This document shows, piece by piece, positions 1 to 64,000 of a DNA stretch of 64,000 nucleotides. The notes beneath the pieces are model-generated. The model ran no database searches, was not told the DNA's origin, and saw only the letters and a list, made by a program, of their open reading frames with translations. The translations under genes and the position numbers were made by a program. The DNA is from Cyanidioschyzon merolae (Eukaryota). The stretch lies in assembly GCA_000091205.1 (NCBI GenBank), contig AP006487.2, one strand, 5' to 3'. Position 1 is the stretch's first letter. Each line of letters starts with the position of its first letter.

Positions 1-1700
1 CATTGTCGACGTTTTCCAGTCATGGTACTGGCCCAGAAAAGTGGGCACTGTTTGAAGGTATGCTACCGTTCAGAGAGAACACGAGCGATCAAGCGGCGCA
101 CGCGGACGATCGTTACGGGGCGTTCATACGAGCGCGCGGAGGTCACCAACAGTTTCGGTTGTACAGAAGCAAGAAGCGTACATGCACTCACTTCGACTAA
201 GAGTTGTAAACGAAAATCTCCGATATGTCGTGTGGTTGGGTGCCAGGCAATGGCGCTGGAAGCACTGGAGCGCGCGATGACTGCACCCTTGCGGACTTGT
301 GGACGGCGTCCAACGAGTGCGGGAATCGATTCCATACGACTCCCGTAGATGCATTCAGGACGATGCCCTCGCATCAATAGCATGGGTGCTCAATGAAACA
401 GGCAGAGAAAAAGCACCTGAAACAGAGCCGGATACACGAGACGGTGTACGTCAGGCCGAGCGAACATCAGCTGGCGAGAATATTGACGACCAGAGGATTG
501 CAAAAGCGAGATTTCAGGAGCAAAATACCTCGATGTACATCCGGGAATGTCCGGTGTTCGCACAGCGCCCAACAGCTTGGTGATCAACGAACCTTTGAGG
601 GAATCGCGCAGTACTTCGTGTAAACACGGATCTGAAACGCTGAAGACTTGCGATGGAAAACAACAGTGACCATGACAGCGTGTATTTCATCCATGTTTGA
701 AGCAAGACACTTGTATGAGACGGTTCAGCAGTCCAGAATGGCTGCCATGCCCCATATATACACATGGAACGGTTTTCCTAGAAATTCATGAACGAATATC
801 CTGCTCCGTAATTCGACTTGACGATGTACCGACATGCAAAGCGGCGTCCTAGGTGCTCTAGCCTAGACGCCCGCCCCCGAAGACCTGCACGGTGTCGCCC
901 TGCGAGCCTTATTTACCGCACCATACATCCCTGGGATATTTATGATGGCTCCGGCCTTGAAGATCACGCGTTTGTGTGTACGTCAGCAGCGTCGATGCGT
1001 CGCTCTAAAATCCATCTACACAGGTGTTCACGGAATGCTCGGCATTTAAAAGCGAGCCCGCTCAACTTCGTATACAATGTGTCATGCATGTAGACTTGCA
1101 TTTTCGAACGAGATCCGTCATTGGGGCACCAGCTCGAGACTGATCAAGCATCAAGCTTCGTGCACGGTAGACAGGCTGTGCTATGAACGGTTCGGCATTC
1201 GACGCCAGGCGCTGAACCCAGACTTGCGTCACCGTACAGTGCGTTTAGGGTTCCATCAGCAGTGCCTCGTTCTTTGCGTTCGTCCTGCAATTCTCCAGGT
1301 CATAGAAGCGTATCCGCAGCATGAAACTGTTCAGTGTGAGCCGAAGTAGCAACATCCAGCATAGGCATTGAAGCGCGTGTCCTATAGATTCCAAGTGCCT
1401 GTGAGCGCTCCCGCACCGGCGATGCACCTTCGTACGAGGACGCGCTCCATACCAAGTCAGCCGAAACATTTCCTATGAATCAAGTGAGGCAGAACTCGCG
1501 ATTTGTGCACTAATCCAGAAGCACGCTTTCGGGAAAGCTTAGCAACAGAATTCGGGCGATTATGTTTTGGTCTATGGTCGAGTCTTGGCTGGGAATCCCA
1601 GCTACGCAATGGATACCGACGTCAGGGAAAGCGCTAACGCATACTCGGCACTCTACGGATTATATGAACGAGCCGTTGCCTCCAACAGGGAATATGGATG

Positions 1701-2090
1701 TATCCGGCGAGATATAGAGACCTGGTGCGGAATGACTAGTGATTTCATAGGCACCGTTGAGGTAGTCGTCTGCAGGGAACTCCTGCTCGTGTCGCAGAAG
1801 CTGCGTTACCGCCACACCAGCATCGAGTGGTATCCGGCGAGATATAGAGACTTGGTGCGGAATGACTAGTGATTTCATAGGTACCGTTGAGGTAGTCGTC
1901 TGCAGGGAGCTCCTGCTCGTGTCGCAGAAGCTGCGTTACCGCCACACCAGCATCGAGTGGTATCCGGCGAGATATAGAGACTTGGTGCGGAATGACTAGT
2001 GATTTCATAGGTACCGTTGAGGTAGTCGTCTGCAGGGAACTCCTGCTCGTGTCGCAGAAGCTGCGTTACCGCCACACCAGCATCGAGCAG
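1701..2090. repeat. Tandem repeat: 3 copies of a 130-bp unit (satellite/minisatellite-like)
   Basis: Units start at 1701, 1831 and 1961, each beginning tatccggcgagatatagagac and ending catcgagtgg. Copies differ by only a few bases. The ORFs on both strands of the array are repeat-translation artefacts. Confidence 0.85.
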
Positions 2091-4087
2091 GCAAGGCCCT
2101 CCCGGGCGATTCCCGGCGCTGTGCGCGAGCCCCGATCGTATGCACGCTGCCGCTGGCTAGCGTCTGAGCCCTGGTACGTTCTCTCCTCCGTCTTGTGCAG
2201 ACGATGCAGCGAGCCGTGCCTAGGATGCTTCAATCAAGTACTGGCCAACTTCGGACCGGGCGCGGGTGCTCGTCAGGGACGACTTTGTGGAAAGCTGGGT
2301 CTCGGCGTTGCAGTGCGTTCCACAGCTGTCAATCGTTGAGTGCTGAGAACCTTTATCAGCCCGCATCTCTGGCGCTGAGAACAGAGAATCGCCAAATCCG
2401 TCGTCTGGTAACGGTGGAGCCAGCGGGCGCGTCTCTTGGACGCACCGTGACAGGGCGCTTCCGCCCGGTTTTGGCGTTGGAACGCGTCGCTGCTGAGGCG
2501 GTCGGTCGGCTGGAAACGCGCAGCTTCACTTACCGCCGAGCTGGATGTACTTCAGGCCTGCTCCAGCTTCTTCTGGATGGAAAAAAAGCTCTAGATGATA
2601 CATAGATTCACCGGTTGGCTCCAGTTCTGCAGAGCGTGTGATGGAAGGCTCTCGCAGAGCTGAGCTGGCCGACATGCTGGCTTGCTGAAACAACTACTGT
2701 ACGCACCAGTGCGGTGTGTTGGTACACTGGCGGAAAAACGTGTGACGATTCGAGATGAAACCAGCAGTGGATAGTTCAGGCTCTCGTGATTAGAATATAC
2801 GCCGTGGGACTTGAAAGTATTTGAGCTCGTCTCCCTCAGGACATGTGCGGCTTCCTGGGTCTGAGGTTTGGAAACGAAGGACCGCAACGATGGGGCATTG
2901 CGCTCTCGAGAAACAAAGCACATTTCATTCGCTACGTTTCCATCATCACGCAGAAACCAGGACGGTAATCAGTACCGAATATCGGGCACTGCGCTTTGGA
3001 AACGACGCAGATTTCGTTGGTTATGTTTCCATTAACACCAAGAAACCATACTGGTCTTTGGTACTGCGGTCGAGGCTATGACACTGCCTGTGGCCCGACA
3101 ATGCCACCATGTTGTCGCCTGGCGGAGCACTTTCCCCTGTGATGCCAATGGATATTTTGTTCTTTTGTGCTGGGCGATCGATGAGCGTACCCAGAGTTCC
3201 CCGCATGCGCAATGATTACCAGCAACTGCAGGAGAGATCTTAGGCATGGTCGGGACGCTTCGGTGTACCTCAACATTCAGAGCAGCTTCTATTTTCGTGC
3301 ATTCGAGCTGAATCGATCCAGCGTACCTTCGGGCGTTGAGTCTCGTGTAGGACGCATGCTGCACCGGTGGACGTGCAGTCGCAGTCGCTTCGATGGCATC
3401 GGCTCGATACTCCGGTGTCTGGTGGAACCTGCGCCGGCGTTCTTCGCAAGCGTGGCCCGAATCAACAGCGAATCCCAAAGAGTCCAGCAAGGACGCGTCC
3501 ACAAATCTAAAGCGTAGCATCCAGTGTTCTACCAAAAAGTGCCAACCTTTGCCTGGTACACGGCGCTGGATCCCAGGAGCAGGCATGAACAGCACCGGCC
3601 TGTTTAAGAGTCCTCGAGTTCTGGCTCCGTGTTCAACCTCATAATGCGCAGCACTAGCGCAACTTTTTTGCCTGCAGCAATGCGAAGGAAAAGCGATAGT
3701 CGCAAATGTGGTATTCTTGAAAGGCCATAATTTTTACCGCATACGCAGATACCGTGAAAGCGTGCTGAGAAGCTATCTCAGGAAATGCACCGGAACACCC
3801 GGAACTCAACTGCAATATTCCCCAGCATATTCTAGTGGAACGTGCATACCAACCAAAATTCGATATCCAAGCAACGACAGGTTGCAGAGCGCAGACGCAC
3901 CAAGTTCCGCGCTTGCCGCACGAGTCTGAATTTGAATGCCACTGATCCGCCCAGCTGGACAACGCATTCGCGCTGCAAACGCTGAGCGAGCTGGTACCGG
4001 TGCCCGCAACGTTTAAACTGTGCTGAGCAGCGCGATACCATATAAATCCACAGCACGCGCGTTGAGCCACTGTCGGTGTCGGCGGTA

Positions 4088-6762: not shown

Positions 6763-8277
6763 CTACGCAATTGCACGTTTACGGCGTACGTATCTTTGCA
6801 CGAGCTCCGCAAACTGCGTCGCTGGACAAGCCCTCTGAATGAACGGATGCGTCAGGAGCCGATCTACGCTCCAACGATCCATGGGTTGCATCGCGAGGCA
6901 GGAGTGTAAAAAGTGGTGAAATTCTGGGCTCCAGCGGGCAGCTTCCGCCAGCTTGGGCGGCCCTCGGGTCGTGATCAGGAACATGGCCCGGAGCGGTGTC
7001 TCTTTGATCCATGGAGGCTCGCCCTCGGCGCATTCTATGGCGAGAATCCCGAGGCTCCAGACGTCAACTTTGTAGTCGTACTCCATGCTTCTGATGAGTT
7101 CGGGCGCCATCCAAAACGGAGTGCCAACGCATGTCGTTCGCTTGTCGCGCTCTGGTGTCAACTGGGCACAATATCCAAAGTCAGCGAGCTTGATGGCCCC
7201 CGACGATTGACCAAGCAGACAGTTATCAGACTTGATATCACGATGGATGCGACGTAGGCGGTGCAGCTGACCGAGCGCAATCAGAACCTCTCGGCAGACA
7301 TAGGCGATCTCTGGCTCCGTCATTCGTTCACCATGCTCTGCCAGATCATAAAGCAAGTCTGTGAGACTGCCCCCGTCCATGTATTCGAGAACAATCCACA
7401 TCGTGTTGCGATGGAGAAACGCCTCGTGAACCTGCACGATGTTCGCGTGGCGAGTGCTATGCATCATGAAGATCTCCTGCTCGAGCGCGCTCATGACCTT
7501 TTCGGACCGAACTTCGACCCTTTTCATCGCAACAATTTTGGTTGGATCGGTTCGAGAGGCTGCCACATAGACAACGCCCATTGCACCCTCGCCCACTTTA
7601 CGCAGGCGCACGTAGACGTCGCTGGGGTCTCGTTCCTGAATGGCGGGAAAGCGTCCCGAGGCCCTCAGTACAGGCTCGCCCCCGGTTTGGCGTGCATCTT
7701 CGGGGCTCGTCTCAGTGAGCAGCTTCGCAGCCGAGTCATCCTGGTGGAGCGCGGTCCGTTCGTTGCGCTCTTTTAAGGCTGCGACTTGGCTGGGATGGTG
7801 CGTTGGCGACGCCGCCCCAGATCGACGCAAATGAAAGTCCATGATATCGCGTACGACTTGCGGATTCGTCAAGACCTCTGTGCGACTGATACCGTTGCCA
7901 ACGAGTAGGTGCTCCCACTCGCGTGGGAGGCCAGAAAATCCCGTCTCAGAGGTGAGGTCGCGGCGCACAGTCACTTTCTTGCGAACCTTGATCGGTGTCC
8001 CTATCTGGGGTGTTTCCTCAGTACTGTCGGATACATCGTTTTGTTTCGGTGCTGTGGGCTTCATATTCGGCTTTCTGGTGCTGGCCGTCCCCGGATCCGT
8101 CGCGTTGTCTGGCGCGTGGCGTGCACAAGACGGCTTGCGCTTCACTCCAGTCGAGGCGTGCGTCGGGGTTCTCGTCAACGCGCTTAAGGCAGCGAGACCC
8201 GCTAACGCGCGCAGTGCGCCTTCAGGTTCAGCAGAGGTCTCCGGGCTCTTGGAGCTGCGCTTCACTCGTGTCTTCAT
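6763..8277 (-). CDS. Ser/Thr protein kinase, STE20/PAK family
   Basis: Kinase motifs present: GEGAMGVVY, VAMKRV, HRDIKSDNCLL, DFGYCAQL, GTPFWMAPE, DVWSLGILAIE. An N-terminal regulatory region carries a CRIB-like FSGLPREWEHLLVG. ATG verified at 8275-8277 (minus strand). Confidence 0.75.
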   Translation of the reverse strand: MKTRVKRSSKSPETSAEPEGALRALAGLAALSALTRTPTHASTGVKRKPSCARHAPDNATDPGTASTRKPNMKPTAPKQNDVSDSTEETPQIGTPIKVRKKVTVRRDLTSETGFSGLPREWEHLLVGNGISRTEVLTNPQVVRDIMDFHLRRSGAASPTHHPSQVAALKERNERTALHQDDSAAKLLTETSPEDARQTGGEPVLRASGRFPAIQERDPSDVYVRLRKVGEGAMGVVYVAASRTDPTKIVAMKRVEVRSEKVMSALEQEIFMMHSTRHANIVQVHEAFLHRNTMWIVLEYMDGGSLTDLLYDLAEHGERMTEPEIAYVCREVLIALGQLHRLRRIHRDIKSDNCLLGQSSGAIKLADFGYCAQLTPERDKRTTCVGTPFWMAPELIRSMEYDYKVDVWSLGILAIECAEGEPPWIKETPLRAMFLITTRGPPKLAEAARWSPEFHHFLHSCLAMQPMDRWSVDRLLTHPFIQRACPATQFAELVQRYVRRKRAIA

Positions 8278-9894: not shown

Positions 9895-10700
9895 TGTTCC
9901 GCTTGCAGGTGCGTGTCATCAAGTGCTTCCTCGCGGGTTATAGCGGACGTGTTCAAAGAGCGTCCATTTTCAAAAATAAACTATCCTAGGGAGATGTGTA
10001 TGTATGAAAATCGGGGATCCTGATGTGCTAGTGTCGCCGGTTTCAACAGAAAAAACGAAAAATTCTCTTCTCACCGACCATCGAGCGAAGGAGAGCAAGT
10101 TTTATGAAAAAGTAGAAAAAGAGAGGAACGGCGGGTGAAAAGTTTTTGTATGCCTGATGTGACGATTACGAGACTGTAACGGGACAGAGGGCACACTGAC
10201 GAAGGCGCCTTGCATTGATGAGTCCCATCAGAGGCAGCAAACGCATGGAATTCGTGAACAGAGACTTGAACTCCGCCATCAAAATCAGACCATTTGTGTT
10301 ACAAAAGGCGAGGCGCGCGGAACTTACGTTAGCGAAAGGTTTGGGACAGCCTCTCAGGTTCGAAGTGTACACGGGACAAATTGAAACCGATATCTGGTTG
10401 CTGGTCAGAAAAAGGCTTCGAGGCGCCTGTGAGTGCGTATCATTTTCCCCTGTCGAGCCGACGCTCTCTGTGGTGCGGCATAGCCGTTCTGTCTCCGTGC
10501 AAGGACCGCATCGGCCCTGTAGACGCTATCGCCGACGCTCTGGGCATGCACTCGGCGCACGATAGAACGTACGGAACGACCATTATATCCGAGAGAAAGT
10601 ATGGGTTACGGAACGTGGAAGTAAGGCGTGGAATGAGGGATACCTTACAGCGCGCTGATGACGAGCGCAGAATCCGAGAACGCTCGCCACAGCAACCACT
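9895..10700 (+). mobile_element. Internally deleted (non-autonomous) copy (a) of the TnpB/Fanzor-like repeat family F, carrying the 3' module X
   Basis: Homologous at nucleotide level to 22497-23050 and to 16640-16990. A 5' block starting caggtgcgtgtcatcaag is shared only with copy (c). The 3' ~260 bp (10440-10700) is module X, shared with the LINE-like element. Confidence 0.45.
10215..10565 (+). pseudogene. C-terminal remnant of TnpB/Fanzor-like ORF (RuvC-III-like motif) running into module X
   Basis: KRMEFVNRDLNSAIKI fits the TnpB RuvC-III signature (D-x-N-A-A-x-N-I) with the Asp retained. It is homologous to KRMEFVKRGFNAAINLRRCAVL (copy b) and GDFDVTSNIRRCAVL (copy c). The reading frame continues into X (VRHSRSVSVQGPHRPCRRYRRRSGHALGAR). 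Confidence 0.35.
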
Positions 10701-13700
10701 TTGGCATTTTTTCACTGACAAAACGTTTACTTAGGCCAGCGTTCTCCGATTATGCGCTTTTTTCTTTTCTTTCTTTTTTTTCAGTGCGAGGTGAGGTATC
10801 CATCAACCCCCTACCTCCATGTTACATTACCTATACTTCGTCTCGGATATTCTGGTCGTTTCATACGTCCTATCGTGTGTGCCTAGTACCTGCCGTTCCG
10901 TATTCGCGTCTGCGCTTGAACCGCTGGAGCAGATAGCTCATAGGGCTAAAACAGCTTTTCTATACCACAGAGGGCGTCGGCTCGAGGTGTGCTTCATCCG
11001 ACGTAGAATCGGGTCTCGTCGTCAGTTTGTGCTCGTACAGTCTGCGGATGCAGGCTTGCCTTCGCTGCACGACACGCTGGAGAAACTTGGTTGTTAGGAT
11101 GAATTCTGGGAGCTGCCTCTCTCCTTCGTGATCATGCATGGAATGCATTGTTGTCGGTTGGCTATGCGGATTTGTGCTTGACACCCACTACAGAAGGAAG
11201 GCGTAGAGAGCACTAAACCCGTGTGCGCATCCGATCCGCTGGACCTTCCGCCTAGAAGGTAGCACGTGAGTTTGTTGGCCACTAATGAGCACTGAGGATC
11301 TGTTAGCGAACCATCAGTTGCCAGTGCTGCACTCAGAGTGAGTGTCCGGCCTTCGACTATCACGGTGTTGCCGAGCTGCTGCTGTCCTTCGAGGAGCTCG
11401 CTGCGCTCCTGCTTCTAGCGCGGCCACTGTAGGCCTAAATATGTCAGCGTCTCGGGGATTTCGTCTCGATAGCAGGTACAGTGTGACTCCCAGTGCGATT
11501 CCAGGGTTCCTATCCGGCTTAGAGCCGGTGCTGGTAGCCAGGAGCCACCAACGCTGATTTTGGCGAGCCACTGGGTACCTCGAGCAAGTCCCGGGAATTC
11601 CAGCGCCTCCCACCAGTAATTGCATGTGTATGCTAGGTTGTAGTTCCGGTATAGAGTCAAGCCGGCGTTACTCGCGCGACTGGTACTGTATCTACGTTCC
11701 CATATTGTTGTTCGGACCGTTCGCTTGAGGCGACGGGAGAATTCTATATTCCTGGGGAATGATTGGGTAGCGTGTTTTCGCCTAAGAGGCGCTTCAGCCA
11801 AATCTGCGCTGATTTCATCCAAGTGATCTTGCGGTGCGTTGGGGTCTGCATGGATATCCGACTGAACCAGGTGTTCATGGTTGGCCCTTTGCCCCATATG
11901 CGTGCCCGGCAGCCTGCTGCTATCGCCTCTGTCGAGGGTATTTGGAGTTCAAGTCCGAGTGCCAGCAGGTTGGTTGCTCTGCTCTGCATTGAGCATCCAA
12001 CTACAACGAGTCGCATTGCCCTGTTGGCGGCTGTCTGCAGACGCGAGGCATTTGTGTGCTTCATGCCGCACCATTCAGCACCACAGGTCGCAGGCTGGAT
12101 GATACATATCCTTAGTGCGCTGGTACGGATTGCTAAGGGGATAGAGGGGTCGGATAAGAATGGGCATGCGATCGCTGTACGTCTATGCATCTTGGCGATC
12201 ATCTCGTTAACGTGTGCCTTTTCGTCGAGCGTCGGCGTGAGACAGACCCTAGGTAGCGATATTTTTCCACGATTGGAATTTCCTGATTCTGCAACCGCCA
12301 CGAGCGATTGCGAATGCTCTGCGAGTCTCCATGGATGGCCATGACGCCGCACTTCGATGCTCCTATGCTCATCTCCCAGCGATCGGCCCAGGCGCTGACT
12401 TGTTCCATGCTAGCCGCAAGCGTTTCCGGGGCGGGTGCCAACAGCACGACATCGTCCGCAAATAGAAGGCCTGCGAGGCGGTTCCCATATGGGCGCTCCC
12501 CATCGGGCATCTCCACAGTCTATCCACGGCACCTCAAGCCCGTATTGTCTGTAGTTGTTAAGCAGATCGTTGATGAAGATGTTGAAAAGGAGCGGGGATG
12601 CAGGATCGCCCTGTCGCAGTCCACGGCGGATTCTTATCGAAGGGGTTCTTGAGCCGTCGCCTAGTCGGATGCGCATCCACGAGTCTGCATAGAGCGCACG
12701 GAAGAACGCTAAGCACTTTGCGGAGACTCCGGCTCGTTCCATCTTCATAAATGGAGCCTCATGCGGGAACGTGTCAAAGGCCTTTTGGAAGTCGACGAAG
12801 CATACGTAAGTTGGTTGTTGGTCGCTAATGAAGCGACGTTGCACCACTTCAATGAGGGTCAGGGCATGGTTCATGCACTCCTCGTGGCTCCGGAATCCAG
12901 CCTGTTCTGGGGCGAAGAACTTGCGTTCCTGGAGGCCGCTGTGGATACGGTTCGTGAGCATGGCGCGAAGTAGCTTCATGATTGACGGGATGAGGCGCAT
13001 AGTCCGGTAGATGTTCATGTCTGTGTGTGTGTGGGAGTCCTTTTTGAGGATCGGTACGACCTCGACAGCCCTCCGTACATCTGGGATGTACGCTTCTTCA
13101 AACATGCGTTGAATGAGCTCCAGAAGGCGTTTGCCTAAGATTGTGTCAGGTTCATCTGGTATCGATGGTGTCCCTGTTGTCCCGTCTTTTGGGGTCGCCA
13201 GTTTCATCCACTCCGCAGGGATACCGTCGATGCCAGGTGTTTTGCGATTGCTTGAGCATAGCAGAGTCCGAACAGATTCAGGCCAGAAAATTGGGTCGTT
13301 CCATTCCGGTACCGGGTCGAGGCGCGGTAGTTCTGCAGCATATCGGTGCCAATAGATTCGGTCTTAGCAGTGCCCAGTTGCGTCTTCATGTAATTCTGTG
13401 CCGTGGTCCGTCCAGGCCTCATTCACTGAGGCACGCTCCGTCCTCAGCGCTTCCTTTTAACAGTTGGTGTGAGCCCCAAGCACTTTCTTGGTGGGTCCAG
13501 TCTCGATCGGATGTAGCCTGGGGTTTCATCTTCGTTGGTGCTCTTCAGCATAGATTCCGCCAGGGAGGCCATTTTGCGGTTTCGATCCTCTCGTTTGTCT
13601 TCTCTGGAAAGTTTCTTCGTTCTTTTGATAGCTTCCTCATGTTGCGCCTGTAGCGCCGGTAGCGCTGCCTTCGCTTCCTTGTCTCCGGCGTTGGCGCGTA

Positions 13701-14955
13701 TGGCGGTGCGGTTGACAATCTTGTTGAGTCGGTGGCATTCATGAATCCGAGTTTTGGTACGTCGTTTGAGGTACTGCGGCTTGCTACTGTTGTGTTCAGG
13801 TGCAAGCAGTCCCAATTTTCTGGCAATCTTCTGATTCCCATCTACAAACTCGCGTGCCAATTGGTCTGAAGATTTGTATTCACGGCTTTTCGGATCTTCA
13901 GCGCTGTGAGCAGGTGCCTGGGATTGGCGACGGCTTTCTTGAGTTCCAGCTGGGGTGCCCTTTCGGGGGATACCTTGTGATGGGCTCGTTTGGGAGTTCT
14001 TCTTTCTATTCTTCTGTTTTTTCTTGCTGGTCTACTTCTTCTTCGGGCTCTTTCCTGAGCTGCTTTCTCTGGTTATTTTGCATTTAAGGGGATCATGAGG
14101 TTTCTGTGTCTCTTTCTCCGTACCTCGTTGGGTCTCTTTTCCAATTGTAGAGTCCTCGACTTGTATCAGTTCTTCATTACTGTACTGGTAATTCGATATC
14201 TCGTGGTTAAATACCGAGGCGATCCCGCTAATATTCCATGATGCGAAACCTATCGAGTCGTAGCGCATAAGGGAATAGGAGTAACGCTGCGGTACTCCAG
14301 AGATACGTTGTCGATTTAGACGCAGCTTCCACAGGGTGTGTGAGAGCACATGCCACCATTGCCTCCTGCATTCCAGTCGTTCACTGAGTGTCTGCCGCAG
14401 CGCTAGCGTAGAATCAGATGTACATTAGTCAAGGTCGATTCGAATGCGAACTTTGTCTTTCCGGACGCGTGAAGCTACCCTCAACCATTGGGAAAAGTCT
14501 GCAAACCACCATTTCAGCGGCTTTGTATCCGCTCCCCAAACACATAGGCGGGCAAGTCGCTTATTCCACTTTCGACAGTGAGCATACTGCCAGCTGTCTT
14601 CCAAAGTATCCGCCGAGATTGTTTCCAAAGTTGAGGTAGGTACTCAAGGTAGAAGGTGAAACTGAGCCCGAATTCAGGGATGGATCCAGTATTTGTGCCC
14701 GAACCTGCAGCGTTGTTTCGGGAGCAGCGGATGACTGCGCTCAGAATTATCGTCATCATTCTCTGCTACTGCCTACGCCCCTCCGTTCGTTGCGGTCAAG
14801 GCCCCTGGCGTGGACTTCCTTCGCAGTCGCTCAAGCACCCCGCGTTAACCCACTTTCAGAGGTTCTCCGGAAAGACTAGACCCCTTAGGCGGACGTGGTT
14901 TGTGGGGCTTTTAAGATAGTGGTTCCTTGATAAATAGTTTGCGACTAGTTTGCAT
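10655..14955 (-). mobile_element. LINE-like non-LTR retrotransposon E, copy 1 (frameshifted; ORF1-like region, RT, 3' module X)
   Basis: A ~600-bp 5' region is conserved with copy 2 (ends gataaatagtttgcgactagttt at 14931-14955). RT fragments lie in three frames on the minus strand. The 3' tail 10713-10965 is module X. No APE endonuclease domain is visible upstream of the RT. Confidence 0.7.
12199..13207 (-). pseudogene. Reverse transcriptase domain of LINE ORF2 (frameshifted)
   Basis: LINE RT motifs are present: MRLIPSIMKLLRAMLTNRI (motif 0/1), FVDFQKAFDT (A), GLRQGDPASPLLFNIFINDL (B), LLFADDVVLLA (C, FADD). The domain is split over ORFs 12410-13207 and 12199-12516, so frameshifted. Confidence 0.8.
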
Positions 14956-15159
14956 CGCGCTCGGTGAGCGCACCTCGGAGATCGGGCAGGCATGAGACGC
15001 TACGCGCATGCCACTGTTGAAGGGAAACACGTGACCTTGATCAATAGCGTGTTGTTCTGCTGTAAAAGTCGGATTCCCGTTGAGGGCGTAGCAAAGTATA
15101 GTTTTCAGTTCATTTCTGTTTCAACCCTCAAGTAAAAATACTCGAGTGTTTTTTCGCAG

Positions 15160-15167
15160 TATATAAG
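15160..15167 (+). promoter_or_regulatory. TATA-like box (tatataag) in AT-rich island upstream of the TnpB-like ORF
   Basis: tatataag sits in an unusually AT-rich stretch (15120-15300) ~210 bp upstream of ATG 15377. This is sequence-only evidence. Confidence 0.2.
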
Positions 15168-15223
15168 AGAAGCGTTCAAAGAGCATTCTTTTTAAAAAAA
15201 CTAAAAAAAGGAAAAGTATGTAG

Positions 15224-16990
15224 GAGCAAGTCCACGATCCTGGAGGCCCACTGTCGCAGGCTGCCAGAAAGAAAACAAAAAACAGTGCCGAGTCCAGAAG
15301 AACAGGGAGAGAGAAGAAGAACCGAAGAGGGGAGGCCCTACGTCGAAGGTGGCAAGAAAGACGACTGTACAACGAGATGGTGGTGAAAGCCTTTCTTCTT
15401 GGACATATCAAGGATCCCTACAGGGAAAAGTTGCGAGACGCTATCGAAAAACGTGTCGACTCGTATTCCGAGAGTATTATCAAGGCGTCGTCAGGGCTGA
15501 TGCATTTGGCGAGGGAGATGTATCGCGACATGGCGCACATGGAAACAGTCGAGATTCCGGACGAGTTTCTCGACATGACCTTTATTTGTCAGCTAATGCT
15601 TGGTACAGCGGAAACGCGGAAGGAAAATGTGCTAGTGCACGCCCTCCACGAAGAACATACCTTTTACAGCTTCAATGGTACTCGATACAAGGTGACGGAG
15701 ATATTTACATCTATGGGGCGATGAAGTACCTCACGAATCTGAAGAACCATTTGACAATGAACCTCGAACGTTTCACGGTACGCGCCGTGTGTGCACTCTA
15801 CCCGGGCCTATCTCGCAAAGGAAAATGGGCGATTATCAATGGCATCACGAAAGATCGTAAGCATGAAGATGAGACGGATTTCGTTGACAAGAAGGCGTCA
15901 AACGAGAGCACGAATGAAGCTTCTGTAATCCGTGCTGCTATTCAAGAGCACCGTGCAATCCTGGGACTGGATTATCCAGCAGAAAAGATATCAGAGTTGA
16001 AAAAAGATAAGGAAACATACGATCGCCTCATTCTACGGTATTTCGTGTTTCTGGACCAAGAACTCGAACGCGAGGCGGAGATGAAGGTGAATAGGGGAAA
16101 AATGAAGAGTGGGAGAGACGGAAGGCTGTCCTAACGGGGAAGCGCTTCAACGTGGTTCCATTGTGCAACATCAAGTCAGATTTTGTGACCATCGGCTCCG
16201 GCGTCCTTTACGGCATCATGAAGCAGATCAGTCCGGAGTTCAGTGTCAGCAGGGAGGACTTCACCGGCGAAAACCGGGAGACGTACTGCAAGAGTATCTT
16301 CGATTTCAAACGTCTGAGAGTGAGCAAGCAAAAGTTGTTTACTGGGATGATCGTAACCGATGGAGTAGAATTGTGTGCAAACTATCGGCGGTTGAAGAGA
16401 GATCGGCCAGTCCCTCCCTCGGCTGCGCCCGTGACGAAGGATCAAGAAAACAAAGAGGTGTATCCTGCGACGCAGGAGGTGGAGGATAGAGACCTTGTCG
16501 TTGACGTGACCAAGGATGAAGAAAGGGAGGAGGCGGATCTTGCGACGCAGGAGGTGCAGGATTACGACCTTGTCGTAGGCGTGGACCCTGGGAATACGAA
16601 TGTCCTAACCATCGCAGCACCGAAGCGTGCGGAAGATGGAAAAGTGCCAGCGGAATCCTGAAGATATACAAAAGTACGGACCGCTGACGGAAGGGCGAAT
16701 GGAAAGGAGAGCGAAAGTTCGAGGATTGCTTGCATCAGTAAGTACAACCAGTGATGGCAAGAAACGGATGGAGTTTGTGAAGCGAGGTTTTAATGCCGCA
16801 ATCAATCTACGGAGATGTGCGGTGCTAGAGAATAAACCTCCAGACTGGACAAGAAGGAACCTTGTTGGACAATCTCTCAAAGGTGAACTATATGAGAGAA
16901 AGCTGGAAGCAGTAGTGGGTAGCCAGTCCAAAAAGACGGGGGGGGGGCGTCTGCACGTCAGCTGGAGACGATTTGTCTAAGGCGCGTTCG
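15224..16990 (+). mobile_element. Longest copy (b) of repeat family F with TnpB/Fanzor-like ORF; 3' truncated within the start of module X
   Basis: An open frame runs from 15224 with a basic, NLS-like leader (RKKTKNSAESRRTGREKKNRRGEALRRRWQERR). The 3' part is homologous to copies (a) and (c) but lacks their ~100-bp segment. The RPL37 gene follows at 17118. Confidence 0.45.
15377..16980 (+). pseudogene. TnpB/Fanzor-like (OMEGA-type RuvC nuclease) gene, degenerate
   Basis: The reading frame is split over frames 2, 1, 0, 1, with switches near 15700, 16100 and 16640, each at an A-run. The RuvC-I-like block is [22 protein letters not shown] (compare TnpB vGIDLGxxxxat). The RuvC-III-like block is KRMEFVKRGFNAAINLRRCAV (compare TnpB DxNAAxNI). 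Only ~70 aa separate them, so RuvC-II and the zinc finger are absent, consistent with an internally deleted pseudogene. Confidence 0.4.
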
Positions 16991-17117
16991 CCGCCATTGC
17001 TGCGTACTGCCGGCGTCGTTCGACTTCGAACGGCGTTCGTGACCGAAGCTCATCCGCGGATCCAGCTGCACGCCGCTGCTTCATTCAGGACGCGTTGTAT
17101 AACAACGTCAGGGAACC

Positions 17118-17438
17118 ATGACGAAAGGAACATCTTCCAAGGGTCGCCGTCACGGCAAATCACATACACTCTGTATCCGTTGTGGACGACGATCGTACCA
17201 TATCCAGAAAAGTACCTGTGCGAGCTGCGGGTACCCGTCGCCGCGAAAGCGGACTTACAACTGGAGTTTGAAGAGCAAGCGGCGACGCACTACAGGAACT
17301 GGGCGCATGCGGTACTTGAAGACGGTTGCTAGACGGTTTCGAAACGGGTTCCGCGAAGAGAACACTCGTAAGGCGATAAAGAGGACAGTGGCTGCCGCTC
17401 CCGCACAGGAGAGCGGCCAGGAAGCAGCGAGCTCTTGA
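17118..17438 (+). CDS. RPL37: 60S ribosomal protein L37 (eL37)
   Basis: [68 protein letters not shown] carries the eL37 C4 zinc ribbon and conserved termini. ATG verified at 17118. Confidence 0.85.
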
Positions 17439-22350: not shown

Positions 22351-22496
22351 AGGTAGTGCAAAGAACACACCGTACCGGTAAGTCGCGCGTGCCGTGGAGG
22401 CGAACGCTGTCGTTCATTCGGCAGCGCTCGAGGCTGGCACCGACTTGCCCGACTAGATGCACTACTTTTTGCTCTTTGACCACAGTGAGATTGATT

Positions 22497-35423: not shown

Positions 35424-35745
35424 GTGCGCAGCCGACTCTCGACCGGCCCCGTCTCAAGCAAAGTCCTGAACAATACCCGTATGTTTTTGATGCGCAATGG
35501 ATCGCGTGCCAATCCGCTAGCATTGACCAAAAGACCAGATTCCACGTTGAAAGAACGATGCCGCTCGCCGACGCCCTCTGTAGTGCGGCAAACCGGGTCT
35601 GTCTCCATACCGCATTCGCACCAGCGTCATGGGCGCTATCGCGGACGATCAGGGCAGGCACTCGGCGCACGATAGAACCTACGGAACGACCGGGACATCC
35701 GAACGGAAGTACAATTCATGGAACGTGAATGTAGGGTGCACGATG
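35424..35745 (+). mobile_element. 3' fragment (d) of repeat family F: degenerate TnpB-like C-terminal remnant plus module X
   Basis: NNTRMFLMRNGSRANPLALTKRP aligns with KRMEFVNRDLNSAIKIRP. The segment SPTPSVVRQTGSVSIPHSHQRHGRYRGRSGQALGAR and nucleotides 35570-35745 (cgacgccctctgtagtgcggca...gcactcggcgcacgatagaacctacggaacgacc) are homologous to module X at 10440-10620. Confidence 0.4.
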
Positions 35746-35765
35746 ATGATGATGATGATGACGAC
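35742..35765. repeat. (GAT)6-(GAC)2 trinucleotide microsatellite
   Basis: gatgatgatgatgatgatgacgac lies immediately after the X fragment. Confidence 0.9.
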
Positions 35766-36174
35766 CAACACTGTCCCGATGGGCAATACGCATCCCGGAA
35801 ACTAGGATCCATGGTCCATGGAAACGTTCCGTGTCCATCAGGGAAATCGCCTTGCTCCGCCAGCGTGATCATCAATGTCCATACTATTCCAATAAAGTTC
35901 CATATGATGCTGCCTGCCCATGCGCATCGATGTCGCCAATTGCGATCCCGGCCTGCGCCGGCCTCGACGCCCGCCAGCCTGTGTCCTATCATCGATTCAG
36001 CGTCGGGCGCAGCGGGACTCCTGCGATCATCGGCTGGCGCGTTCGTCCACGTGTGCCTAGCGTACGCCACTGGCAGAGCGTCCGGGAACGTTCACGTGTT
36101 TTCCTGGGGCGCAGGTCAGTTGACTCTAGTTTGCGTGTGTAAGCGAAGCCTCAATACATTGTATCCTCTGTTTC

Positions 36175-54317: not shown

Positions 54318-54737
54318 CCCTATTCGCGATCAGCGTAGATTCGGATGCGAAGACAGGTCGTCGCCAATGCGACTCGCCCTCTATCCGACGCCGGCTAACG
54401 TATCGGAAAGCCGTGCTGTCTCTGTATGGTGTCGGCATCGGAGCTTCCGGCGCTGTGCTGGTGGCTCACTGCAGACTCCGCACTCGGAGTATCTTATGAA
54501 CGATCGATCTTCTCTTGAGGGAAGTTTTGGTGGTGGTTCCCGCAACGCGCAATTCTTGTGTAAAATCATGGCTGCTTCAATAGATGCATATAACCTTCGC
54601 CCACATTGGTATGATTCGCTAGTTTCCACGATCCTACACAATAGAAAGACCAATCTGAACAGCGGCAGATCGATCACAACAAACTGCGTTTCCACCAGAC
54701 CTAGATGAAACGCGTCCGCTCAGCTGTCTCGGAGACG

Positions 54738-58466: not shown

Positions 58467-61136
58467 TTACGTGCGTGAGAGCCTAAGCCATGTCTCTAGT
58501 GCGCACGTTCTCTCCAGACGCTTACGCGCTTCTGGGAATGCTAATAGTTGATGCAGCACCTGATCGACCAGCGGTTGCAGGCGATCTCGAAATCTAAGGG
58601 CGAAGGTTTTGCGTCCCACAAGATATGAATAAAGACGATGGCGTCTCAAAATAGCGTAAAAAGGATCCGAGGTGTCGTTACCTTCAAGAAGAAGCTGCAG
58701 CAGAAATTCGTGAACGCGCTCTTCCGGTGAATAGATCATCTCATGGACACCGGGGAGTTCCTCCATGAGCGACCAGCACGGACGCAGTAGCGTTACCTTC
58801 CAAGCGAACTTGAACAAATCATGGTTACCGTTTGTGACAATCTCTGCTAACGAGGCGAAGAGCGCACATTGGATACGGGGTAGCCTCTGATATGGCTGTG
58901 TGATGGACGAGCGCAGGACATCCAACACCGCCTGGACGAGACGGCGCTCACGAAGTTCCACTGCAACCGGCACAAGCCGATAAAACGTTGCCAGAATATC
59001 GTAGGCTTTGTGGCGGATCTCGTTCTGCTCCACAGCCAGCATGAAAAGGACCGATCGGAGCGCACCACTTTGAATAAAGTCGCGAGCGTCTCCGATGCGG
59101 GAATCGTAAAGCGCATCCAAATGGCGAGCATCCGGCGCTAGCACCTGCAGTACCTGCTGGCCTGCACGTGGTACGACCATAGCATTTTCCACGGATACTG
59201 GACTTGCCTCAGCAGGTGCTGGTGGTGGCGATGTGGTCTCAGAACCCGACCGCATGATCGCCATGCAGGCCTTGATATGCTTGAGACAATACTCCAGGTA
59301 GGGATCGCTGGTGCTCCGAACGCGTCGCTCGACTGCAATCCACAACGGCGATAGTTGAAAGCTCGTTTCACCCGGAGCCTGGCTGTGCAAAGCATCATCA
59401 AGAATGGCATAGGGCTTGCAAGTTGCTTCAGTGATGATGCGCTCAAACAGCGCTCTCGTGGACGGCGCAGCAAAACGCAGCAAATCTAACCAAAGGCTCG
59501 CTTCCAGCGAACACGTTTCGCCTGAGTGTGGATTACGCAGCAGGCCGTATTCGTTCAGGTATTGCAGGAAAAAGGCGTACAGCGGGGCTCTTGGAAGCGC
59601 CCTCAACTCGAAGAGATCCTGCAACCGGGTCGCTAGACGGATGCTCCGGTTCTGGGAGAACATTGCTCCGAGCGTTCGTACGAGTTCAGCGCCTGTGAAC
59701 GAACAAGCGTAAGTGATTGTTTCTGGTGCCTTTGGTATGATCTTTGTGAGGTCGAGACCAGACTGAAAAATCTGCTCAGGGCGCTTCTCGATGCACAGGC
59801 GGAGAAGACGCAAGCCGCGCGCAAGCCGGAGCGAACCGAGGGTATTGGAAGCTCGCATCGCCTCTTGTCGGATATAGTCAATCAGCACGGTTAATGACGG
59901 GATTGTCTTGCCTCCGTTTTCAAGTGCTGCAATCCACGCATTGCAAGTCACAAAGTCTAGTCGCATATTCTGCGGCAATGAGAATGCTGCTGTACATGTA
60001 CATTGCCGCAGCGCAGCGATCGCAAGGGCAACTTGCTCGCTTTTCCAGATCGATTGGCTTTGGTTGGTATCCTGGAGCGCTGACTCCGACGTAAGCGCTT
60101 TGAGAAATGCCAAAGACATTTCGGGGCCACCTGCTTGTAACATGCTTTGAGCGAGGCGAAGCTTGACGGAACTGGAAAGATTTTCGCGTGCGAGATATTG
60201 CGCTAGGGAGCGCTGGTCTCGAGTTTGCGCGATGATCTTGATCAGACCTGCTCGGTGTTGCTCGCCTCTTACGAACTCAACGATGCTAAGGAGGCTACCA
60301 AGCATACGACCGCTGTTGAGCCAGGTTGCCGTGCGGAGTACTCGAAGGAGTCGTCCTATATCATTGGCGCCTTGGCGAAACCGGATTCGTTGGAGCACCT
60401 GCCGAAGGAGTACTGCATACAGCTCTCGTAGGTCCGGGGCGAACGTATTCGAAGCGAGAGCGCTCGCGTCGAGCCACTGCAAAAGCGACTTTTCCAATGT
60501 TGTGGTTCTTTTCTCCAGTTCGGAGAGGCGCCTTCGCTTTCGTTGCTGTCTCTGGCGCTGCTTTTGCAAAAGCTGAACCAGCAAGTCGCGGTTTGGTTGC
60601 ACCGTCAAAAACGTTTCCCGTGCGTAACCGCTGCCGAAGCGGGCAACGGCAGCGAGAAGGCGAAGGGCACTCATCGTCAGAGCTGCCTGTTCGGATCGCA
60701 GAAACCCCTGCAGTACAGCGCGGTACTCCGTTAGCAGCGCCTGTGCTAACCCCTGAAAATCGACCGACTTCGCTTCTACTTCCGGCGATGTGGAGTGTTG
60801 GGTTCGATCATCTGCATTTGGAGTCAGAAGCGTTGCCAGCTGTGTTGCTGCTAAGGCTGCTTGACTGGGGTTAGCACTCACCAGTGCCGAAAGTAGGGTG
60901 CCCGCAGATGGCTGAGCATTTTCGTCTGCAACCTTCGCTGACTCGTGCCCTCGATGCATCTGGTTTGCACCAGCACCTTGGACTCCAAAGTCAGGTATCC
61001 CTGAGGTCATTGTCCAGGCCTTCAACGCCGTTCTAAGTCGAAGGACGGCAGTGTACAGTAGTGGCGAGAGGCCCGCCCTAGACAAGAAGTTTCCAATTGA
61101 TGTGCAGACGCCTCCCAGTTTTCCTCGACCGCCCAC
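58467..61136 (-). CDS. Large alpha-helical hypothetical protein (889-aa open frame; no ATG at the ORF-track start)
   Basis: A long uninterrupted minus-strand frame with Leu/Ala-rich helical-repeat character. The 5' end at 61134-61136 is GTG. The first in-frame Met is ~43 codons in (MTSGIPDF). A retroelement copy lies immediately upstream. Confidence 0.35.
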   Translation of the reverse strand: MGGRGKLGGVCTSIGNFLSRAGLSPLLYTAVLRLRTALKAWTMTSGIPDFGVQGAGANQMHRGHESAKVADENAQPSAGTLLSALVSANPSQAALAATQLATLLTPNADDRTQHSTSPEVEAKSVDFQGLAQALLTEYRAVLQGFLRSEQAALTMSALRLLAAVARFGSGYARETFLTVQPNRDLLVQLLQKQRQRQQRKRRRLSELEKRTTTLEKSLLQWLDASALASNTFAPDLRELYAVLLRQVLQRIRFRQGANDIGRLLRVLRTATWLNSGRMLGSLLSIVEFVRGEQHRAGLIKIIAQTRDQRSLAQYLARENLSSSVKLRLAQSMLQAGGPEMSLAFLKALTSESALQDTNQSQSIWKSEQVALAIAALRQCTCTAAFSLPQNMRLDFVTCNAWIAALENGGKTIPSLTVLIDYIRQEAMRASNTLGSLRLARGLRLLRLCIEKRPEQIFQSGLDLTKIIPKAPETITYACSFTGAELVRTLGAMFSQNRSIRLATRLQDLFELRALPRAPLYAFFLQYLNEYGLLRNPHSGETCSLEASLWLDLLRFAAPSTRALFERIITEATCKPYAILDDALHSQAPGETSFQLSPLWIAVERRVRSTSDPYLEYCLKHIKACMAIMRSGSETTSPPPAPAEASPVSVENAMVVPRAGQQVLQVLAPDARHLDALYDSRIGDARDFIQSGALRSVLFMLAVEQNEIRHKAYDILATFYRLVPVAVELRERRLVQAVLDVLRSSITQPYQRLPRIQCALFASLAEIVTNGNHDLFKFAWKVTLLRPCWSLMEELPGVHEMIYSPEERVHEFLLQLLLEGNDTSDPFYAILRRHRLYSYLVGRKTFALRFRDRLQPLVDQVLHQLLAFPEARKRLERTCALETWLRLSRT

Positions 61137-61209
61137 CCATTACTGCTTCCAACTTTTTCTCATACAGTTCGACATAAAGAGGTTGTCCAATAAAATTTCA
61201 TCTTGTCCA

Positions 61210-63365
61210 CTCTGGAGGTTTCGTCTCCAGCACCGAACATTTCCTGAGACTGATTTTTTTCCATTGCCAAAACGTTTACTCAGGCCAGCGTTCTCCGATT
61301 ATGCGCATTTTTCTTTTCCTACTTTTTTTGTTTTATTTTTTCAGTGCGCGGTGAAGTATCCGTCAACCCCCTACCTCCATGTTACATTACCCATACTTCA
61401 TCTCGGATATTCTGGTCGTTTCGTACGTCCTATTGTGTGTGCCTAGTGCCTGCCGAAAGCGACCGCAATGGCGCGTATAGCACCGGTGCGGTCGCTGCAC
61501 GGAGACAGAACGGCGTTGCCGTACCACAAAGGGTGTCGACTTGAGGCGTGGTATCGATGGTGTCCCTGTTGTCTCGTCTTTTGGGGTCGCAAGTTTCATC
61601 CACTCCGTCGCGATACCGTCGACGCCAGGTGTTTTGCGGTTGCTTGAGCATAGCAGGGTCTGAACATATTCAGTCCAGAAGATTGGGTCGTTCCATTCCG
61701 GTACCGATTCGAGGCGCAGTAGTTCTGCGGCATACTGGTGCCAATAGATTCGGTTTTGGCAGTGCCCAGTTGCGTCTTCATGCAGCTCTGGCCCGTGGTC
61801 CGTCCAGGCCTCATTCACTGAGGCACTCTCCGTCCTCAGCTCTTCCTCATAAACGATTGGTGTGAGCCCCAAGCACTTTTTTGGTGGGTCAAGTCTCGAT
61901 CGGATGTAGCGCCAAGTCTCATCTTCGTTGATGCTCTCTAGCATAGATTTCGCCAGGGAGGCGATTTTGCGGTTTCGATCCTCTCGTTTGTCTTCTCTGG
62001 AAAGTTTCTTCTTTCTTTTGATAGCTTCCTCATGTTGCGCCTGTAGCGCCGGTAGCGCTGCCTTCGCTTCCTTGTCTCCGGCGTTGGCGCGTATGGCGGT
62101 GCGGTTGACGATCTTGTTGAGTCGGTGGCATTCATCAATCCGAGTTTTGGTATGTCGTTTCAGGTACTGAGGTTTGCAACTGTTGCATTCTGGTGCAAGC
62201 AGTCCCAGTTCTCTGGCAATCTTCTGATTCCCATCTACAAACTCGCGTGCCAGTTGGTCTACGGATTTGCATGCACGGCTTTTCGGATCTTCAGCGCTGT
62301 GAGTAGGTGACTTGGCTTGGCGGCAGCTTTCTTGAGTTCCCGCTGGGGGTGCCCTTTCGGGGGATGACTTGTGATGGGCTCGCTGGAGCTCCCGCCTGTA
62401 GGCTCGTTCGGGAGTTCTTCTTTCTATTCTTCTGTTTTTTTTCTTGCTGGTCTACTTCTTCTTCGGGCTCTTTCCTGAGCTGCTTTCTCTGGTTATTTTG
62501 CATTTAGGTGGATCATGAGGTTTCTGTATCTCCTTCTCCGTACCTCGTTGGGTCTCTTTTCCTATTGTAGAATCCTCGACTTCTATCAGCTCTTCGTTAT
62601 AGTACTGGTGATTCGATATCTCGTCGTCCAGTGTCGAGGCTACACCCCAGATATTACAAGTTGTGAGACCTATCGAGTCATAGCACATAAGGGAATAGGA
62701 GTAGCGCTGCGGTACTCCGCAGATACGTCGTCGATTTAGACGCACCCTCCACGGGGTTTTTGAGCGCACATGCCACCAGCGCCTCCTGCATTCCAGTCGT
62801 TCATAGAATGCTTGCCGCTGCGCGAAGTTAGCATCAGAAGTACATTAGTCAAGGTCGATTCGAATGCGACCTTTATCTTGCCGGACGCGTGAAGCTACCC
62901 TCAACCACTGGGGATACTCTACGAACCACCCTTTCAGCAGCTTCGTATCCGCTCCCCAAACACATAGGCGGATAAGTCGCATATTCCAGCTTCAACCGCG
63001 AACATGCTGCCAGCCGTCTTCCAAAATATCCGCCGATATTTCTTCCAAAGTTTAGATAGGTACCAACGAAGGAGGTAAAACTGAGCCCGAGTTCAAGGAT
63101 GGATCCAGGCCTCACGCCCGAACCTGCAGCGTTGTTTCGGGAGCAGCAGATGACTGCTCAGAACTCTCGTCAATATTTTCTGCTGCTACTGCCTGCGCCC
63201 CTCTGTTCGTTGCAGTCAAGGTCCCTGGCGTGGGCTTCCTTCCCCGTCGCCCGAACACCCCGCGTTGACTCACTTTCAGAGCTCCTCTGGAAAAGCTAGA
63301 CCGCCAAGGCGAACGTGGGGTGTGGGGCTTTAAGATAGTTGTTCTTTGATAAATAGTTTGCGACT
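61210..63365 (-). mobile_element. LINE-like retroelement E, copy 2: internally deleted (RT lost), retaining the 5' region, ORF1-like region and 3' module X
   Basis: Region 62760-63365 is homologous to 14340-14955, including the terminal gataaatagtttgcgactagttt. ORF 62452-62769 matches 14032-14349. ORF 61387-61944 matches 13444-13860 and then jumps directly into X (61254-61560), which is homologous to 10713-10965 and to rc(10440-10700). Confidence 0.65.
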
Positions 63366-64000
63366 AGTTTCCTTTTTTTTTGACAAGTCAACCCCGCATC
63401 ATCGGATGCAATGCTGAGGAGCTCTGGACCGCTCGATCGTCGCCTTACCATAATATTTTGGGATGGACAGAGCTGTGTTTGCAGGGAAATCGCCCGCTTT
63501 TAGGCTCTTTCCGGTTATTCAGTTGTGCTCACGAGCTCTGCCCAAAGCACTATGAAACGCGGGGTTCGCATCGCGCGGTGAGCTGAATTGGTGATTGATG
63601 AACTGCTTGCGGGGCCTTGACAGGGTAGCGAGTGTGGAACGCAAACTTTTGGCTGGATGACCTTCAGCGATTGAAAGCGTCATCAAGTTTGCAGTTGTCC
63701 ATGGCAAAGTGCTTCACGAAGCCGCTCTTTTTGACAGCTTTGTGACCACAACGTCGAAGCAGGAACCCACAGTACCGGACCTGATCGACAATAGCGACTG
63801 GTCCGTGGTGCGACTGCTCATCCGACCCGATGTCGGTGCGAAGAACCTGCGCCAGCATGGCATCCTCGATCCGGGTCTTTTGCCGTGGAACATAGAACCT
63901 GCACCGCACGCCATACCGCACGAACGTTCGCTCTGGTCTCGCCTGTGGATGTTGCTCGTTATGGGCGCGCACGAGTCTGGTCTGGATCGTGCAAGGCTCC

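Follow-up and report, generated by a model that had tools for sequence, protein, structure and literature searches.

We analysed a stretch of 64,000 nt from the genome of Cyanidioschyzon merolae (contig AP006487.2, GenBank assembly GCA_000091205.1), called here the window, with a focus on a long inverted repeat near its position 10.7 kb. There, two copies of a module that we named X meet tail to tail. The left copy follows a relic of family F, which by profile comparison belongs to the Fanzor1 homologues of TnpB. The right copy closes E1, a copy of family E, which is a retrotransposon without long terminal repeats (non-LTR), or long interspersed nuclear element (LINE), and a larger Fanzor1 element lies beyond E1. 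In window coordinates, the region reads as follows.

9905..10452, + strand: F(a), a mini-F (F2), that is, a ~550-bp non-coding Fanzor1 relic with a RuvC-III remnant (RMEFVNRDLNSAIKI), collinear with other short F2 copies.
10453..10706, + strand: left arm, an X module of a diverged subtype that has no A-rich linker and makes up the 3' portion of an F2-X chimera (full-length alignment to the X copies of E and of B, a short X-tailed repeat).
10707..10985, - strand: right arm, the X with which E1 closes at its 3' end, A6 tail included; the tail is 10707-10712 on the + strand (X identity and terminal motif ...AAACGTTTTGTCAGTG(A)6).
10707..14953, - strand: E1, a copy of a non-LTR retrotransposon, 4.25 kb long, whose 5' end is complete (GCAAACTAGTCGC...) and whose open reading frame (ORF) is frameshifted; 90-94% identity to E in L007, L008 and L004 (L numbers designate metagenome loci).
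12199..13207, - strand: reverse transcriptase (RT) region of E1, which the frameshift divides between ORF 12410-13207 and ORF 12199-12516 (Pfam RVT_1 matches with E=3e-19 and 3e-6).
14954..17040, + strand: F(b), a Fanzor1 (CMe-1A-like) core (F1) with an internal deletion, 5' terminus ATCGCGCTCGGTGAGCGCACC and 3' tail ...TTCGAACGGCGTT (the family profile matches Fanzor1 structures).

A repeat search returned arms of 36-75 nt, 77-81% complementary, between 10453-10706 and 10716-10985. When 10453-10706 was aligned globally to 10707-10985 in reverse complement, 187 positions were identical among 239 ungapped columns (78%), and the 55 gap columns corresponded chiefly to the A-rich linker, present in the right arm and not in the left. 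Folded as single-stranded DNA, 10440-10995 formed one long imperfect hairpin of -132 kcal/mol, as compared with -76.6 +/- 4.9 kcal/mol for shuffled sequences (z = -11). The long inverted repeat and the ~260-bp hairpin that the original prediction had read from the letters alone were thus both borne out. The arms abut at 10706|10707 (...CACTTTGGCA|TTTTTTCACTGAC...) with a spacer of 0, and the TTTTTT found at the junction is the complement of the E1 A6 tail. The right-arm X was 87.6% identical to the X of a second E copy of the window, E2, and 90% identical to that of L007.

A degenerate 23-nt X core pattern had 4 matches in the window, where 0.01 was expected, and found 120 metagenome loci; dereplication of 138 X matches by their downstream flanks left ~85 distinct loci. 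Self-comparison of the window confirmed that X is also carried by E2 and by an orphan fragment, as had been proposed. The features concerned are the following.

~35567..35830, + strand: orphan copy with X alone, of the B subtype, which begins at the X 5' boundary and ends with the terminal motif ...GGAAACGTTCCGTGTCCATCAGGGAAATCG (self-comparison).
61255..63370, - strand: E2, an RT-deleted non-autonomous derivative of E, with X at 61255-61549 (self-comparison; same deletion junction in L056).
61024..61254, - strand: F(f), a Fanzor1 fragment (F1 nt ~2356-2590) that starts in the RuvC-III coding region and is fused to the E2 A-tail (comparison to F1).

The ~85 loci comprised 23 E 3' parts, 2 RT-deleted E copies, 17 B copies, 39 copies that were X-only or truncated inside X and 3 that were limited by their contig. 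The F2-X chimera of the window formed a class of its own, its partner in L045 (see below) not being flagged by the automated classification. The 5' starts of the E 3' parts were scattered over E nt 40-4080, without terminal repeats, and ~25 of the 85 loci had a 5' start within 50 nt of the X 5' boundary. X itself measured about 255-290 nt. Every complete copy had ...AAACGTTTTGTCA(ATG/TCTG) at its end and a short A-rich run after it, and the flank beyond this run mostly began with T(C/G).

Comparison of X subfamilies pointed to three helices kept via compensatory changes, for example TATC/GATA versus CGAC/GTCG versus CATC/GGTG. These helices, defined by that comparison, were then tested separately on 51 copies. 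The proportion of paired cells was 88%, versus 33-53% with slid partners, and 83 cells carried double changes versus 35.7 +/- 7.1 after shuffling, a value reached in 0 of 500 shuffles; the helices had been picked from the alignment used for counting, which inflates the contrast with the controls. RNAalifold found almost no structure in the mixed 51-sequence alignment because the X subfamilies differ, and a brute-force scan of column pairs was noisy. Rfam, searched with the whole window at gathering thresholds and with 10300-11100 at E<=10, had no match to X, and a tRNA scan of the window gave nothing credible for it. The test for covariation across copies, which the original prediction had advised, turned up compensatory changes in three helices. 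Collectively, these data point to X as the structured 3'-terminal module of the Cyanidioschyzon non-LTR retrotransposon family E.

Family E is a non-LTR retrotransposon (LINE) by its type of RT, its 3' A-rich tail and its variable 5' truncation. The RT carries a FADD motif, and the RT of the E copy in L008 matched the R2 and LINE-1 (L1) ORF2p RT domains in PDB (E 1e-16 to 1e-10), the alignments with R2 and L1 structures being confined to the RT region. A CCHC motif (HCPCCG...C) lies at the E C-terminus. In E1, the ORF 12410-13207 (-) was 87% identical to a Cyanidioschyzon merolae 10D protein named 'retroelement, alive'. The copy nearest to E1 matched it at 94% identity, and E1 has the same 5' end as E2. 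The latter consists of E nt 3-1797 fused straight to X, the RT region being deleted just past '...GTPSIP', and its target-site duplication (TSD) was ambiguous. All E copies examined were frameshifted, and the loss of an endonuclease in these copies is possible. In C. merolae, 26 retroelements have been reported, all closest to non-LTR retrotransposons (PMC1955436). Directly 5' of E2 on the minus strand, the sequence 63371-63400 (...TTGACTTGTCAAAAAAAAA) resembles the extreme tail of another X-type retroposon, and E2 may sit right behind such an earlier tail.

The F copies of the window are all degenerate. Intact relatives measured about 480-500 aa and carried the motifs GADPGNT, DEFRTS and RDFNAAIN. 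A profile built from 34 distant relatives matched the solved Fanzor1 structures 9cf0 (E 2.8e-24), 8gkh (1.8e-18) and 9cer (1.2e-7), and one relative had a weak Pfam match to a Cas12f1-like TNB domain. Single F sequences had no Pfam or PDB match, a PDB search with a shallow profile was likewise empty, and Pfam returned RVT_1 alone over all F and E ORFs of the window. An AlphaFold2 model of F from a shallow alignment was unusable (predicted local distance difference test score, 38). On the strength of the 34-relative profile, F belongs to the Fanzor1 family with its split RuvC-like nuclease. It fits the description of CMe-1A, a C. merolae Fanzor1 family of ~150 ~80%-diverged copies of ~3 kb, in which no terminal inverted repeats (TIRs) or TSDs were found and which was left unclassified, whose 5' 635 bp equal a separate element of ~70 copies, TE-N2_CMe, likewise unclassified (Bao & Jurka 2013, PMC3627910).

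The original prediction had regarded X as a 3' module of the TnpB-like family as well. This did not hold: in an alignment of 30 dereplicated F 3' ends, X followed in the F(a)/L045 lineage alone, and the others had tails of their own. The main subfamily extended ~110 nt beyond the ORF to ...GTCGTTCGACTTTCGAACGGCGTTTGGTGT, and a second subfamily ended in ...CATGGTTATGGGACATTTTTTG.

Some further features of the family were observed. The Fanzor1 core has a 5' subterminal hairpin, GCGCTC-GGT-GAGCGC, 3 nt from the terminus (window 14954-14985 and other F1 copies), and a 3' subterminal hairpin, GTCGTTCGA-CTT-TCGAACGGC (window 16990-17040 and other F1 copies). The 5' flank of F1 nearly always ends with A before TCG. 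Immediately ahead of the RuvC-I motif, Fanzor1 proteins (window 16430-16587; P0123, P0133) have acidic repeats of ~25 aa in a variable tandem array. Short relics of the Fanzor C-terminus are immediately preceded by remnants of a Tc1/mariner-type DDE_3 transposase, FIPMYAPQFNPIEGVFSIVK (window 50998-51192 on the minus strand; L008:1578-2069), which suggests a mariner-associated Fanzor subfamily.

F(a), the element next to the left arm, consists of the F 5' end and the last ~85 codons, without a start codon or an intact ORF, and is collinear with relics of ~550 bp at window 22467-23007 and in L085, L025, L128 and L045. It was thus a gene-less relic, not the carrier of a TnpB-like gene that had been announced. 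Nor does X overlap the end of such a gene, as F homology stops at ~10452, before X, and ORF 10215-10565 merely reads through. The normal last ~40 nt of F(a) are replaced by X, and the missing F2 tail was sought beyond E1 and not found. The same F2|X fusion point was present at the non-syntenic locus L044/L045. L045 was collinear with window 9905-10706 from the relic 5' end to the X terminus (~78-83% identity), and the X copies of L045 and of the window chimera were reciprocal best matches (78%). The reading of the left X as a plain insertion of 5'-truncated E into F(a) was dropped, as L045 has the same fusion. Sharing of one fusion point by unrelated loci argues that the F2-X chimera formed once and was then copied as a unit, most simply via retroposition through its X tail. 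The idea that F is moved in trans by the LINE RT through a shared 3' tail stood in part. An F2-X unit at two unrelated loci fits it; the rest fell, as the relic has no TnpB gene and X is absent from the other F ends.

Our preferred reading, to which we give a probability of about 0.72, is that the palindrome is a nested, inverted insertion of E1 at the tail of an older F2-X chimera, X being a LINE tail. The old chimera of ~800 bp (9905-10706) would have arisen when X took the place of the last ~40 nt in a Fanzor1 relic without a gene, and would have been copied whole to one further locus at least. In the window it would have lain directly upstream of F(b), in the 'X tail | ATCGCGCTCGG...' arrangement that recurs elsewhere. 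Later, a younger full-length E1 would have integrated in the opposite orientation, exactly at the junction between the chimera tail and F(b), its reverse transcription primed from ...CACTTTGGCA-3' and its 5' end joined to the first nucleotide of F(b). As a matter of fact, the F(b) 5' terminus at 14954 adjoins the E1 5' end, and removing E1 (10707-14953) in silico made the chimera tail abut that terminus exactly. Removal of E1 thus yields the recurrent junction of a chimera tail with F1, which argues that the palindrome is a by-product of nested insertion. E1 was 94% identical to its nearest relative versus 78% for the pair of chimeras, indicating that E1 would be the later arrival; the proposed order of events is drawn from this divergence. 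Twin priming was rejected as a source of the palindrome, since it inverts internal LINE sequence without duplicating the 3' tail.

Tail-to-tail X pairs were found at 2 of the ~85 X loci, the window and L061. The hairpin is therefore not a recurrent functional design: it is a by-product of insertion. The check whether other E copies end in X followed by its reverse complement, asked for in the original prediction, showed no such rule: copies such as L007 end in unrelated flank.

Several points count against the nested-insertion reading. No TSD was found around E1 and no clear one for the F2-X chimera, and we infer the mode of insertion of both from their context. Neither an N-terminal apurinic/apyrimidinic endonuclease (APE) nor a C-terminal restriction-like endonuclease was found in the E ORFs (Pfam, E<=1). 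For the diverged subtype to which the X arm beside F(a) belongs, no LINE partner of full length was identified. The loci were gathered with the X pattern, which biases the sampling of contexts, and an X-independent look-up supplied three F loci usable for the 5' terminus, L129, L133 and L134. Finally, the reading has no explanation for the meeting of retroposons and the Fanzor1 5' terminus at one nucleotide.

E apparently shares its tail with elements that depend on it: RT-deleted E, B, X-only copies and rare chimeras, in a relationship of the kind known between LINEs and short interspersed nuclear elements (SINEs). The E RT would start on RNAs ending in X; recognition of X by the enzyme is indirectly suggested by the conserved helices with their compensatory changes and by the co-occurrence of the elements. 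B measures ~650 bp, with a defined 5' end (AAAGAACAGAAACTA...), unique flanks and a 3' X with an A-tail. Target duplications of 13 bp (ATCACGAGCTGCG) and 9 bp (ACCTCGGGT) flank it in L028 and L114, respectively. Being short and non-autonomous, with its own 5' end and the tail of a partner LINE, B is SINE-like. A polymerase III-type head was not detected, with no tRNA or Rfam match in the window; the 370-nt head of B itself was not scanned. To judge from the published description, and not from sequence comparison, B is probably TE-N2_CMe. B appears to be an X-tailed, LINE-dependent retroposon, which would classify a formerly unclassified short Cyanidioschyzon repeat. In L061, near X core 1230 (-), an E-type X breaks off at ...GCTGGCCTA, where the A5 tail of a B in reversed orientation follows; this B sits ~25 nt inside the X tail.

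The junction between an X tail and the F1 5' terminus occurred at six or more loci besides the window. F1 nt 1 directly followed the A-tail of E parts in L034, L080 and L076, and the tail of B or X-only copies in L051/L070, L120/L038 and L129, the last found by the X-independent look-up. Other fusions of X tails to F1 were found at nt 55, at nt 1649 and at nt 2356; the one at nt 2356 is the E2|F(f) junction of the window at 61255, and the sequence upstream of E2 is not F1. Fusions at such varied points of F1 resemble the chimeras made by RT template switching.

The F1 5' terminus behaved as a module boundary, preceded by direct X tails, by reversed B, by a 445-bp module or, in the window, by the reversed 5' end of E1. 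Reversed B, its 5' end abutting the F1 terminus as in the CMe-1A architecture, was found in L004, L106, L117, L023, L109 and apparently L027, with an A-run and flanks that differed at each locus. The unrelated ~445-bp module precedes the same F1 terminus in L046:798-1239, L052:4923-5365, L133:389-823 and L134:3750-4195. A reversed E 5' end was considered as the source of the 'class 2' sequence that precedes F1 and rejected for lack of similarity. In L117:4828-6192, a 1.1-kb unit made of antisense F1 nt ~480-1, B and A6 lies inside a reversed E copy, flanked by a direct repeat of 87 nt (86% identical) plus 14 nt, that is, a target duplication of ~125 nt. There was therefore at least one retroposition of an RNA that included Fanzor-element sequence. 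The full-length units of reversed B and F1 in L004, L106 and L023 had no flanking direct repeat of >=14 nt.

Could the 10.7-kb palindrome have another origin? Assemblers can generate inverted repeats, and a collapsed palindrome had been named as what would overturn the original prediction. We give this view practically no credence. The 100 nt across the junction are identical in three further metagenome assemblies (L018, L089 and L123), four assemblies in all from different samples, while the flanks of these three differ by ~1.5% from the window, which therefore excludes a single-assembly collapse. Arms only 78% identical cannot, moreover, be collapsed copies of each other. It had also been suggested that X is an omega-RNA-like guide scaffold of the TnpB-like (Fanzor) element, captured by the LINE. 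X is indeed structured with compensatory changes and, in one lineage, occupies the expected place of a Fanzor omega-RNA, at the end of an ORF remnant. That lineage, however, has no gene, 29 of the 30 F 3' ends lack X and carry a different conserved tail, X ends dozens of mainly RT-bearing or RT-derived copies with A-tails and, in B, TSDs, and Rfam gave no match. We thus regard the capture of a guide RNA as very improbable. Of the three readings first offered, insertion of two elements tail to tail came closest to the data; as for X being their target, there was some indication. X-tailed retroposons might prefer the last nucleotides of an X tail or the F1 5' terminus, in either orientation, making the palindrome the expected product of a site preference and thereby complementing the nested-insertion account. 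Both tail-to-tail pairs lie within the last 5-25 nt of a resident X, where random insertion in a ~16-Mb genome would, on a rough estimate, yield far below one case. Furthermore, one and the same nucleotide of F1 adjoins X-tailed elements of several kinds (E parts that differ in length, B, X-only, F2-X) and also the 5' ends of E1 and of reversed B, and flanks past the A-run mostly start with T(C/G). The numbers are small, though, compact genomes poor in transposable elements force these to pile into one another, and neither an endonuclease nor a motif was found that explains the preference. Some shared junctions may also descend from one ancestral junction copied with F1, given the 75-78% collinear identity across it. 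Active targeting is, in our view, a serious possibility that falls somewhat short of even odds.

A broader question is whether Fanzor1 (CMe-1A) elements themselves, beyond the relic, owe their spread to the LINE RT and not to a DNA transposase. They might be carried along in antisense, upstream of a B/X tail, CMe-1A being reversed B plus the F1 core, or F1 RNA could serve as a template from which the RT then jumps to the A-tail of an E or B RNA, leaving X-tail|F1 chimeras. The lack of TIRs and TSDs in unclassified CMe-1A and the identity of its 5' 635 bp with TE-N2_CMe (PMC3627910) speak for such propagation. So do the LINE tail, A-runs and TSDs of B, which lies reversed at the F1 5' terminus with varied A-runs and flanks, and the L117 unit with its ~125-nt direct repeat. 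X tails with A-runs are joined to F1 at nt 1 (at least 7 loci) as well as at nt 55, 1649 and 2356, the flank upstream of E2 is not F1, as template-switch chimeras predict, and the F1 3' terminus GGCGTTT(T/G)GTGT resembles the X terminus AACGTTTTGTCA. However, L117 is a single example and the full-length units in L004, L106 and L023 lack a flanking direct repeat of >=14 nt. F1 3' ends have no A-tail, and F1 fragments truncated at the 3' end occur alongside 5'-truncated ones. F1 cores with the same two ends also stand behind the unrelated 445-bp module, which suggests a mobility defined by their own ends, and their subterminal hairpins at both ends recall some DNA transposons. We consider LINE-driven spread of Fanzor1 elements in general unlikely, at well under an even chance.

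The pile-up of retroposons and Fanzor1 elements occupies a short intergenic interval of a compact genome, between two host genes.

6763-8277, - strand: PAK/STE20-like kinase (Pfam PBD and Pkinase).
17118-17438, + strand: apparent ribosomal protein L37 (judged from sequence).

Elsewhere in the window, two 1.1-kb segments (43449-44565 and 54736-55853) are 97.5% identical and show a weak protein-level relation to the sequence upstream of F(a), to 27.7-28.1 kb and to 51.8-52.3 kb; they belong to an unclassified repeat family. One kinase ORF from the window was matched on a metagenome contig of 103 kb from a hot spring. At 1700-2087, there are three tandem copies of a 130-bp unit with 98% identity.

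The palindrome itself needs no new biology. What the analysis adds is that LINE-tailed retroposons and Fanzor1 elements have been joined repeatedly at single-nucleotide-precise points in a genome with very few transposons, and that B gains a defining ~270-nt structured tail with testable helices. If the junctions are only a shared insertion hot spot, they offer a defined target site for studying a LINE without a recognisable endonuclease. If they mean that Fanzor1 is copied through RNA, the understanding of how the eukaryotic TnpB homologue spreads would change: an RNA-guided-nuclease gene family would ride on a retrotransposon system, with the X-tail|Fanzor junctions, including that of the palindrome, as its footprints. 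C. merolae, transformable and with a complete genome, is a tractable system for such questions.

Work from the Okada laboratory reportedly described LINE/SINE pairs with a shared 3' tail and 'stringent' recognition, for example UnaL2/UnaSINE1 of the eel, and CR1-type LINEs with their SINEs. The E system is alike in that an autonomous non-LTR element and several short dependents end in one structured tail of ~250-290 nt kept by compensatory changes, and in that the copies show A-rich ends and 5' truncation, with target duplications on B. It differs in that one dependent is built from a Fanzor1 relic and that no endonuclease domain was detected in E. L1 elements produce chimeric retro-copies via RT template switching (U6/L1-type) as well as 5' and 3' transductions. 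The X|F1 and F2|X junctions share with the template-switch chimeras an RNA A-tail end joined to another sequence, full-length or 5'-truncated. Unlike those, the putative chimeras have no TSDs around them, and F1, the downstream partner, lacks an A-tail and could be a DNA transposon.

E2 recalls the HAL1-type derivatives of L1, as it lacks the RT but retains the 3' tail together with 1.8 kb at the 5' end; the same deletion junction in L056 indicates that this derivative was itself copied. In contrast to HAL1-type derivatives, its deletion ends exactly at the X 5' boundary, where many 5' truncations cluster. The closest likeness in content is with CMe-1A and TE-N2_CMe: F1 plus reversed B reproduces the published architecture, in which the 5' ~635-650 bp are a separate short repeat (PMC3627910). 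That paper draws no link to a LINE, whereas B here has the 3' module, the A-tails and the TSDs that go with one, and F1 cores are found not only behind reversed B, but also behind direct X tails and behind a third module.

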